Of a stretch of DNA of 64,000 bases, positions 14,354-15,987 are shown piece after piece (the first letter of the stretch is position 1; each line of letters begins with the position of its first letter). Position numbers and translations under genes: made by a program. Origin of the DNA: Shigella phage Sf25; sequence record MF327009. One strand, written 5' to 3'. The notes below the pieces were generated by a model. That model was not told the origin of the DNA and did no database searches. It was given only the letters and a program-made list of their open reading frames with translations.

Positions 14354-15133
14354 TTAATTAAAAATATATACTTCATCAGTTCCATTCTTTTCTTTGGAAT
14401 GATATATGTTAAAGACGTATTTTTTATTAAGATGCTTAACATTATATTTTTTAGACCATTCTTTAAGAAGAGTGTTTTCCTTTCCGTGATGCTCTAAAAC
14501 ATTCGACAGTCCAAATTTTATTCCTCTGTCATTTAAAGAATCTAAAAGATTTAAAAGGTCTTTTTCTTCTTCTTCTGACCAAAATTTATTATAATCAGCA
14601 ACTGTTATAAGATATGGAGGGTCCACATATACAAAATCGCCATCTAGAATTTTGACATCTTTAAAATGCAATGAACTAAAGATTATTTTATCACAATTTT
14701 GTTTAAAGTGATTAAAGCGTTTTTCACTATTTTTGTTTATAGTTCTTTTTCCAAACGGAGTAGTAAAATTTCCTTTATCGTTTATACGAATCATATTACT
14801 AAACCCGTGAAAATGAAGAACATAAAGTAAAAGAGGATCTCTAGTTTTATTATAATCTTCACGTAATTTCAAAAACTCTTCTTTTGATGTTTTTGATAGT
14901 TTATATTGCTTTATTACTTTTAATACGTCATCCCATGATACATTAATAAGACGCTTATACATTTCAATAATTGGTTCTTGAATATCATTGGCCAATACAG
15001 GACCATTGACGTTCAAAGACACTGATAAACCTCCACAAAATAAATCCACGAATCTGTCATATTTTGGAAAATGAGGCTTAAGTTCAGGTAATAATGACTG
15101 TTTATTACCTGTATACGCGATAGCTCCTAGCAT
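14354..15133 (-). CDS. dam: DNA adenine (GATC) methyltransferase Dam, 259 aa
   Basis: DPPY catalytic motif, FCGG SAM-binding motif, T4 Dam length. Confidence 0.9.
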
Positions 15134-15693
15134 TATATTCTCTCATTTATTGCAGCAAAAAACGAATTATATAATTCTTCATCATATGTATTTGATAGTA
15201 ATACTAACACGTTTTGTGATTTAGCATATTCATTAAACCTTGCTTGGATAGTTGGATTATTAGTAAATGATTCTCTTTTTGTCCATTTATTACGTGGATA
15301 ATATCCGCATGGCAAAAAATCTAATATCATCAATGACACAGGGTTTTCAGTTTTTGTGTATTCTTTTAATTTCTCTTTATCTTCTAAATATATTCCAACC
15401 GAATCAATAGCTGTACCTCCACCAACTTGGTGTTTGATTTCAATTATATGCTTTTTACCGTTGCGAGAAATAACAATATCAAATCTTCTAGTACGCTTCT
15501 TAGTTATAAAATTAGAGCAAAACAAATTATTTGATTTTTCAGTATCATCAATTAAAACCATTTTTTCTTGATAACTAACTGAACAATCAGTGAAATATTC
15601 TTTTACTTTATTAAGTATGAAATTTTCAACTACGGCAGATATTTTATATGAATCTCCGTTTAAAGCCATTTCATGCACAATTTTATTAATCAT
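15133..15693 (-). CDS. PD-(D/E)xK nuclease-like protein, about 186 aa from internal Met
   Basis: Motif [20 protein letters not shown] (D...EIK); own early-promoter-like site 15715-15748 and SD GAGGA; ORF-track N-terminal extension probably spurious (non-ATG start). Confidence 0.5.
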
Positions 15694-15714
15694 TATATCA
15701 TCCTCAGCAATTTG

Positions 15715-15748
15715 TTTTATAATACCATAACAAGCTGAGAAAGTAAAC
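15715..15748 (-). promoter_or_regulatory. early-promoter-like site (GTTTAC -35, TGGTATTATAA -10) for the nuclease-like gene
   Basis: Minus strand reads GTTTAC-N17-TGGTATTATAA. Confidence 0.45.
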
Positions 15749-15786
15749 AAATTTATGATAAATATTAATTTAAAGGAGGACGACGC

Positions 15787-15987
15787 ATGGTACAAAAATT
15801 AATGGCACTTGTTAATGCCATCAAAGGTAATAAAAAACGTATAGCTTTTACTATTTCTGCTATGGTAGGAATTTTACTCTGGAACTTTATTTTATCACCT
15901 GTTGCAATTGCACATGGTATTAATATTCCAGTAGTTACTCTTGATACATTCGTAGATTTAGCATTTGCTTTAGTTGGGTTAATTTAA
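15787..15987 (+). CDS. small hydrophobic (two predicted TM) protein on the opposite strand
   Basis: Strong SD AAAGGAGGA 6 nt before ATG; fills the otherwise empty 290-bp gap between gene 61 and the nuclease-like gene. Confidence 0.3.
   Translation: MVQKLMALVNAIKGNKKRIAFTISAMVGILLWNFILSPVAIAHGINIPVVTLDTFVDLAFALVGLI

Follow-up and report, generated by a model that had tools for sequence, protein, structure and literature searches.

In a 64,000-nucleotide (nt) stretch of DNA from Shigella phage Sf25 (sequence record MF327009), hereafter the window, an open reading frame (ORF) of 186 residues lies on the minus strand between the DNA adenine methyltransferase gene dam and the primase gene 61. We use X as a working name for this ORF and propose, with a probability of roughly 55%, that X and Dam form a type II restriction-modification (R-M)-like cassette with its own early promoter, the activity and specificity of X being predictions. 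The window is, by sequence identity, a T2-like Tequatrovirus: positions 15100 to 16000 show 99.9% identity to Shigella phage Sf24 and about 98% to phage T2. The minus-strand order is 56 (dCTPase), dam (14354–15133), X (15136–15693), and the gene 61 primase (15984–17012), and the interval between X and gene 61 holds a plus-strand ORF of 66 residues. The features of the putative cassette are as follows.

14354–15133, minus strand: dam, gene for a 259-residue Dam-family (D12 class) DNA-(adenine-N6)-methyltransferase (NCBIfam TIGR00571 dam, E 1.4e-69)
15133–15693 (coding 15136–15693), minus strand: X, gene for a 186-residue PD-(D/E)xK restriction-endonuclease-like protein with putative catalytic residues E23, D72, E85, and K87
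15701–15705, minus strand: Shine-Dalgarno (SD) sequence of X, GAGGA, 7 nt 5' of the ATG, read from the sequence
15719–15748, minus strand: T4-early-type promoter-like site GTTTAC-N17-TGG-TATTAT, from a scan and cross-lineage comparison
15701–15741, minus strand: inverted repeat CTCAGC...GCTGAG plus inner pairs, flanking the −10 box of the X promoter, from RNA folding

The two genes are tightly apposed in the window, where the dam ATG and the X stop codon have 1 nt in common (TAATG) and the SD-like GAGAG of dam itself is located within the 3' end of X. The records of Sf24, T2, and T4 all carry a Dam annotation for dam. X is annotated as a hypothetical protein in public records, and only the Sf24 record adds a remark on the CATH restriction-endonuclease-like superfamily.

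X and its pairing with dam

An earlier, sequence-only reading of the window had described X as a nuclease-like gene that starts at an internal ATG behind an SD sequence, and we find the ORF (15133–15795), the ATG (15693), and the GAGGA (15705→15701) exactly where it had put them. A 220-residue, TTG-initiated version of X was rejected, as its start lies 5' of the promoter-like site and all homologs begin with M-(I/N)-I-N. The nuclease core that the reading had picked out (RFDIVIS...HIIEIK) is real, with D72, E85, and K87 invariant in 11 homologs down to 30% identity; the residues conserved without exception in this alignment also include E23, H88, Q89, and G93-T-A-I-D-S98, among others. An AlphaFold2 model of X, built from the family alignment, is confident, with a predicted local distance difference test (pLDDT) score of 81 and a predicted template modeling (pTM) score of 0.79. 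It shows the α-β-β-β-α-β core order of the PD-(D/E)xK fold, and E23 falls on the long helix 1, D72 on strand 2, and E85 and K87 on strand 3. The superfamily places a Glu on helix 1, an Asp on strand 2, and the (D/E)xK motif on strand 3, so that the arrangement of E23, D72, E85, and K87 in the model is the canonical PD-(D/E)xK catalytic layout, with the putative catalytic E...D...ExK set intact. Foldseek searches with the model return VC1899 first and MunI second, and the fold-search matches also include Can2/Card1, McrC, and Bax1; the nuclease-like fold that had been suggested thus holds up in both the model and the searches. From the modeled structure, we assign X, a small PD-(D/E)xK protein, to the kind represented by type IIP restriction endonucleases, structurally nearest to the EcoRI/MunI branch. 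X is also under purifying selection, with a ratio of nonsynonymous to synonymous polymorphism (pN/pS) of 0.26–0.38.

The X family is tiny. It constitutes the whole of PHROG 8706, where its function is given as unknown, and searches of 5.8 billion sequences and of 1.84 billion representative proteins returned 10 clusters and 12 matches, respectively. A search of BFVD gave the homolog of phage MX01 as the only strong match. X has no match at curated thresholds in Pfam, NCBIfam, or PDB sequences, searches of PDB sequences with X and with the X family profile gave nothing useful, and a search for homologs on plasmids found none. The diverged homologs show that the 186-residue form is ancestral. 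Classical T2, phage SV76 (SV76/T2 locus L002, 1548–2093), and the T4 remnant of X described below share a 1-nt deletion in an A-run (window ~15150–15160), which alters the C terminus of X (...NSFLLQ*, 181 residues) and leaves a gap of 14 nt before dam.

In every homolog with readable surroundings, X stands directly upstream of a T-even-type Dam gene, so that the adjoining endonuclease and methyltransferase genes of type II R-M systems have their counterpart in 8 of the 8 lineages checked. The lineages read were Tequatrovirus (the window); Dhakavirus MX01; four metagenomic lineages (L006, L007–L011, L013, and L012); L016, which is distant; and SmallBear and Shinkou, which are Klebsiella phages of Jiaodavirus. 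The X stop codon and the Dam start codon abut or overlap, by 0, 1, 4, 7, 20, or 35 nt. The pair occupies three genome positions, namely 61|X-dam|56, denB|X-M...ndd (Jiaodavirus), and X-M|rIIA (L016). As the identity of X to the window protein falls through 64, 63, 55, 49, 43, and 35%, that of Dam falls correspondingly through 76, 71, 72, 64, 61, and 52–54%. These comparisons show that X and Dam are inherited, diverge, and relocate as a pair. Strict pairing, tight coupling, and joint relocation favor the restriction-like module that was one of three roles offered by the sequence-only reading. For another of these, an anti-defense factor, we found nothing to support a decoy.

A nuclease that acts independently of Dam methylation, in the breakdown of cytosine-containing host DNA or in the processing of DNA structures, could also stand beside dam merely as a co-transcribed early gene. 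The generic PD-(D/E)xK fold, with matches that include Can2/Card1, McrC, Bax1, and VC1899, would suit such a protein, as would the predicted early promoter, and T-even phages already encode several nucleases for host DNA (with denB, gp46/47, and dexA annotated). This explanation, however, accounts neither for the joint relocation to three loci nor for the constant stop/start coupling, and it also leaves unexplained why genomes with dam only exist and none with X only were found among the close-relative records. We regard it as unlikely.

The states of the locus among close relatives of the window bear on the same question. The junction between gene 61 and the adjoining small gene dam.1 is found in 503 records, dam in 183, dam together with X in 148, and the body of X in 147. 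A further class of ~35 records, T4 included, has dam and a remnant of X, and ~320 records have neither gene (the T6 type, as the T6 record shows). We saw no X without dam among the close-relative records, in which the query spanning dam and X matched 183 records, the same number as dam alone. In type II R-M systems the methylase may stand alone and the endonuclease never does, and this is what the close-relative records show.

In T4, the last 87 nt of X are kept, and a GA microhomology marks their junction with the sequence just upstream of dam.1. The deletion of ~538 bp (window 15220–15757) has removed the catalytic core, SD sequence, and promoter of X; the dam genes of T4 and the window share 96–97% nucleotide identity. 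From this comparison, T4 is a deletion derivative that lacks the nuclease half. The sequence-only reading had named no T4 gene between dam and 61, and the T4 reference AF158101 indeed annotates nothing in the 309-nt gap at 17626–17934; the gap is not empty, however, and holds an intact dam.1 ORF and the 87-nt remnant of X. Phage KarlGJung has a different internal deletion in X (window 15332–15694 is gone) and an intact dam, and phage PD112, whose background is more diverged, has end-points of the T4 type, again with dam intact. There are therefore at least two different X-inactivating deletions in which dam was kept, the T4 type (PD112 included) and that of KarlGJung. Such one-way loss, in which the nuclease goes, the methylase stays, and the opposite is never seen, is what one would expect of a toxin-antidote pair, R-M systems among them.

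The same loci speak to the suggestion, also made in the sequence-only reading, that X could be of a homing type, that is, a free-standing homing endonuclease like those of the T4 seg and mob genes, which would cleave relatives without X close to the dam/61 junction and propagate through repair. Like X, the seg and mob genes are optional nuclease genes that are wedged between conserved early genes and are patchily distributed. Unlike X, they have other folds, and X is constantly coupled to a methylase and evolutionarily persistent. The usual GIY-YIG or HNH domains are absent from X, and what genomes of the T4 type show is the scar of a deletion, not an empty target site. The homing option is further weakened by the methylase, which accompanies X to new loci, and co-divergence of the two proteins to 35% and 52% identity, together with their joint movement, is unlike a short-lived homing gene. 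We consider homing very unlikely.

Upstream of X in the window, the promoter-like site (GTTTAC at 15748→15743, an N17 spacer, and TGG-TATTAT with the −10 box at 15724→15719) agrees with the T4 early-promoter pattern of a GTTTAC(A/T) −35 box, a spacer of ~17 nt, and an extended −10 box TGnTATAAT, in the form GTTTAC-N17-TGGTATTAT. A scan for early promoters is by itself without statistical weight, as it found 14 sites against the 18.2 expected by chance. The arrangement (G)TTTAC(A/T)-N17/18-TGn-TAnnAT is found upstream of X in six diverged lineages, in one of which the pair stands at another genome position, and an equivalent of the SD sequence (GGAG or GAGG) is present at the homologous loci. 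Two public records annotate the X promoter as an early promoter, one of them, that of phage fPS-65, as a predicted early promoter. The conservation of the site across lineages bears out the earlier suggestion that X has an early promoter of its own, and our reading of the sequence is that X is co-transcribed with dam from this predicted early-type promoter.

An inverted repeat surrounds the −10 box of X in five of six lineages (the window, L006, L014, L015, and L016 among the loci), with arm sequences that differ and complementarity that is kept. The corresponding RNA hairpin folds at −12.3 kcal/mol in the window (z −2.2) and at −19.6 (z −3.9), −23.6 (z −5.5), and −21.7 kcal/mol (z −5.6) elsewhere, and weakly in MX01; its 3' arm covers the SD sequence of X in the window, MX01, and SmallBear. 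Consensus folding across lineages was weak, the stems differing in length and register, and the support comes from single-sequence folds only. The hairpin is predicted to form only in RNA that is read through from upstream. In T4, hairpins at genes e, soc, 49, and I-TevI block the translation of read-through transcripts but not of transcripts that start inside the hairpin. The hairpin at X may likewise limit the translation of X to transcripts from its own early promoter, and the read-through RNA could still give Dam. We offer such control of X as an idea only, one that is secondary to the proposed cassette and less secure.

Weighing the proposed restriction-modification cassette

The phage Dam protein methylates GATC. 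If X is its restriction partner, X would cut DNA at, or overlapping, unmethylated GATC, and Dam would act as the antidote that guards the DNA in the infected cell. Candidate targets would be co-infecting or superinfecting phages that lack dam (the T6 type), under-methylated replicating foreign DNA, and dam-minus hosts; because the enterobacterial hosts are Dam+ too, the more likely targets are DNAs left unmethylated by Dam. The cassette would serve as a competition or selfish module, and T4 would represent the familiar end state, with the toxin half gone and the methylase left as an orphan.

Comparisons with named nuclease families place X near known type II enzymes and inside none of them. 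The most consistent weak match of the X family is to the Pfam family DpnII, which 5 of the 11 members hit with a best E value of 8.3e-5, all under the gathering score, and the PADLOC model REase_II, for type II restriction endonucleases, matches the X family with a best E value of 5.3e-6. For a comparison of the two families with hhalign, we prepared a DpnII family alignment that started from a sequence checked against Pfam (335.7 bits) and a protein database. The match covers 90 columns at an E value of 8e-4 and is weak; it pairs E23 with E152, D72 with D201, and E85 with E214, and sets an invariant DpnII Asn opposite K87. The DpnII/MboI family (PF04556) is GATC-specific and has a D12-class methylase partner, DpnM, much as X is partnered by a Dam-type GATC methylase. 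DpnII differs in its length (288 residues, against 186 for X) and in the invariant Asn at the position of K87. X was rejected as a member of the DpnII family, given a score below the gathering threshold, a weak profile-profile match, and the Asn opposite K87.

For EcoRI and MunI, the X family found no match to the Pfam families at E ≤ 1. The verified EcoRI sequence reads EAKHQG...GNAIER where X reads EIKHQV..GTAIDS, a likeness in ExKHQ and GxAI(D/E) that we judged by eye, and the resemblance is a motif-level and structural match only. The EcoRI arm insertion is missing from X. The EcoRI residues that read AATT, N141 and R145, correspond to T and S in X, so that the specificity of X should differ from that of EcoRI. 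A route to DpnII-type systems through plasmid homologs of T2 Dam was also tried and led only to AlwI-family type IIS systems. The nearest plasmid relatives of T2 Dam (38–43% identity; L018, L020, L021, and L022) are AlwI-family type IIS methylases of Lactococcus, Enterococcus, and Staphylococcus, and enterobacterial Dam is further from T2 Dam, at 25–28% identity.

Several observations weigh against the R-M proposal. The nuclease action of X is a prediction, as is any recognition site, and thresholds of curated families are not reached: window X scores 15.7 bits against Pfam DpnII, where the cut-off is 23, the hhalign probability for DpnII is just 24%, and hhalign finds no relationship between the X family and EcoRI (probability 0.2%), so that sequence-profile similarity to the MunI/EcoRI branch is undetectable. 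The linkage evidence represents a limited number of independent events and comes from related phages only. In classical T2, the 1-nt deletion noted above has altered the last residues of X (181 residues). Escherichia coli and Shigella hosts are Dam+, which shields host DNA from a methylation-sensitive GATC cutter, and the glucosylated hydroxymethylcytosine (glucosyl-hmC) of T-even DNA blocks most type II enzymes, which makes both the target and the need for self-protection uncertain. The depletion of GATC described below is likewise shared by phages with and without the pair, its observed-to-expected (O/E) ratio being 0.33 in the T2-type window, 0.36 in the first 50 kb of T4, and 0.34 in the first 50 kb of T6, and GATC depletion in enterobacterial phages has other known causes.

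GATC is the most depleted of the 256 tetranucleotides in the window, with 66 occurrences against 201.6 expected (O/E 0.33); among 6-bp palindromes, GATATC is depleted most, with 5 against 24.5. The depletion of GATC is compatible with long-term pressure by a GATC-directed nuclease. As a discriminator, however, it was rejected, being equal whatever the status of dam and X; the ratios are indistinguishable among T2-type phages, T4, and T6, and the depletion is therefore not attributable to X. A bolder version of the cassette is that X and Dam form a weapon of phage against phage, which cuts glucosyl-hmC DNA at unmethylated GATC. T2-type phages would then damage or convert co-infecting T6-type genomes that lack dam, T4-type phages would keep the antidote only, and the promoter hairpin would keep the synthesis of X within the first minutes of infection. 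This version is doubtful, and we put it forward tentatively.

Methylation could also direct X rather than block it. A DpnI-like nuclease would cut G(m6A)TC, where m6A is N6-methyladenine, in the cytosine-containing DNA of the host, with the phage Dam ensuring the mark and glucosyl-hmC shielding the phage. Dam-methylated host DNA would be an obvious target early in infection, the pairing with Dam fits equally well, and virus-encoded m6A-dependent nucleases exist (PMC10101028). On the other hand, X is a single domain of 186 residues with no separate methyl-reading domain in the model, and its nearest structures are classical type IIP enzymes. Host Dam already provides the mark, moreover, so that phages with X only should be viable, and none were found among the close-relative records. 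These features make a DpnI-like role quite improbable. MutH likewise belongs to the PD-(D/E)xK enzymes and recognizes the methylation of GATC. X could be a nickase like MutH, or could bind DNA as a catalytically silent partner, with Dam marks serving strand discrimination or regulation in place of restriction. This would fit the conserved link to Dam as well; we consider such a role extremely unlikely for X.

Gene dam.1 and the surroundings of the X-dam pair

From the interval between X and gene 61 to gene 61 itself, the window holds four further features.

15757–15764, plus strand: late-promoter-like box GATAAATA, 7/8 to the T4 late box TATAAATA, 23 nt 5' of the dam.1 ATG
15787–15987, plus strand: dam.1, gene for a small membrane protein of 66 residues, SD sequence AAAGGAGGA at 15772–15780; PHROG 2024
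15789–15824, minus strand: intrinsic-terminator-like hairpin and U-run, 3' of gene 61, antisense within the first dam.1 codons
15984–17012, minus strand: gene 61, DNA primase, flank of the locus

The small plus-strand ORF is named dam.1 in the T6 record. It is present in all 503 related records regardless of the state of dam and X and is therefore independent of the X-dam cassette. Between MX01 and L006, its differences fall at codon positions 1, 2, and 3 in the numbers 9/4/36, with a pN/pS of 0.11. This substitution pattern marks dam.1 as a genuine gene under purifying selection and confirms the sequence-only reading, which had proposed a real small membrane ORF on the opposite strand. Of the two transmembrane helices that were predicted there, one is clear in the hydropathy profile (residues ~19–42), and the other is doubtful, the hydrophobic C-terminal tail containing two Asp residues. 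Orthologs in diverged phages have 61–66 residues, a K-rich segment, a hydrophobic helix containing W-N, and the motif G-I-x-(I/L)-P-x-V-T. We looked for T4 late promoters as a TATAAATA box ~20–30 nt upstream of the start codon. The box upstream of dam.1 is exactly TATAAATA in MX01 and L006, AATAAATA in T6, and GATAAATA (7/8) in the window. Most likely, dam.1 encodes a late-expressed small membrane protein.

The terminator-like hairpin on the minus strand (15824→15799, followed by a U-run) is strand-specific, folding at −12.4 kcal/mol (z −3.1) as against −6.8 kcal/mol (z −0.2) for the plus strand, and the hairpin downstream of gene 61 is annotated as a terminator in fPS-65. The converging genes dam.1 (plus strand) and 61 (minus strand) share the palindrome TTAA in their stop codons (15984–15987), an arrangement that is kept in MX01, L006, and L009.

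On the other side of dam, gene 56 (dCTPase, minus strand) contains a perfect 244-bp tandem duplication (13699–13942 = 13943–14186), which puts the reading out of frame and leaves two ORFs in place of one; Sf24 has one copy and an intact gene of 519 bp. Gene 56 is essential in T4, and the duplication therefore looks like an artifact of assembly or construction or a very recent event. Identity to Sf24 is 99.9% over 13943–19000 and 96–97% to the left of ~13700, with a breakpoint (~13498–13700) that coincides with the duplication; given this drop, the window is a mosaic relative of Sf24 and not Sf24 as such. The metagenomic L006 carries an extra ORF of 93 residues (4010–4291) between dam.1 and X; its match to a nucleoside triphosphate pyrophosphohydrolase PHROG is confined to the C-terminal half of the latter, so that it resembles a fragment of gene 56.

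Precedents and significance

Type II R-M pairs are already known, including in viruses; what is new here is X and its setting, namely a virulent phage, hypermodified DNA, and T4 as a scarred orphan. The biochemistry of T2 and T4 Dam has been studied for decades. A 2025 review nevertheless describes the in vivo function of T4 Dam as still unclear (PMC12707154). The "orphan" methyltransferase of T4 is the same gene as dam of the window, and in T2-type phages Dam has X as a partner. We found nothing specific in the literature on X, dam.1, or a T-even R-M cassette. The chlorovirus PBCV-1 has a GATC R-M pair in which the methylase M.CviAI, paired with A579L, is expressed early (PMC7248222). Like X and Dam, the R.CviAI/M.CviAI pair (A579L/A581R) belongs to a lytic virus with its own GATC methylase in a viral R-M pair. 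PBCV-1 is, however, a virus of eukaryotic algae, the DNA of its host is not Dam-methylated, and its target is obvious, whereas the hosts of phages with X and Dam are Dam+. The search of the X family against the 1.84 billion representatives revealed no sequence relationship between X and the CviAI system. A survey of jumbo phages predicts that modification enzymes coupled to restriction-endonuclease domains attack the host's DNA or that of superinfecting phages (PMC7824862).

If X is indeed the restriction partner of Dam, the Dam protein of T-even phages would be the modification half of a phage-borne R-M cassette, and the reference phage T4 would be a scarred derivative without the nuclease, which would account for the link having gone unnoticed. 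With X would also come a small, formerly unclassified family of restriction endonucleases, which may act on hypermodified DNA. Should the more tentative reading of the pair as a weapon between phages prove true, T-even Dam would gain its long-missing biological role, and the same conflict could also be the reason why no tetranucleotide is more depleted than GATC in T-even genomes.

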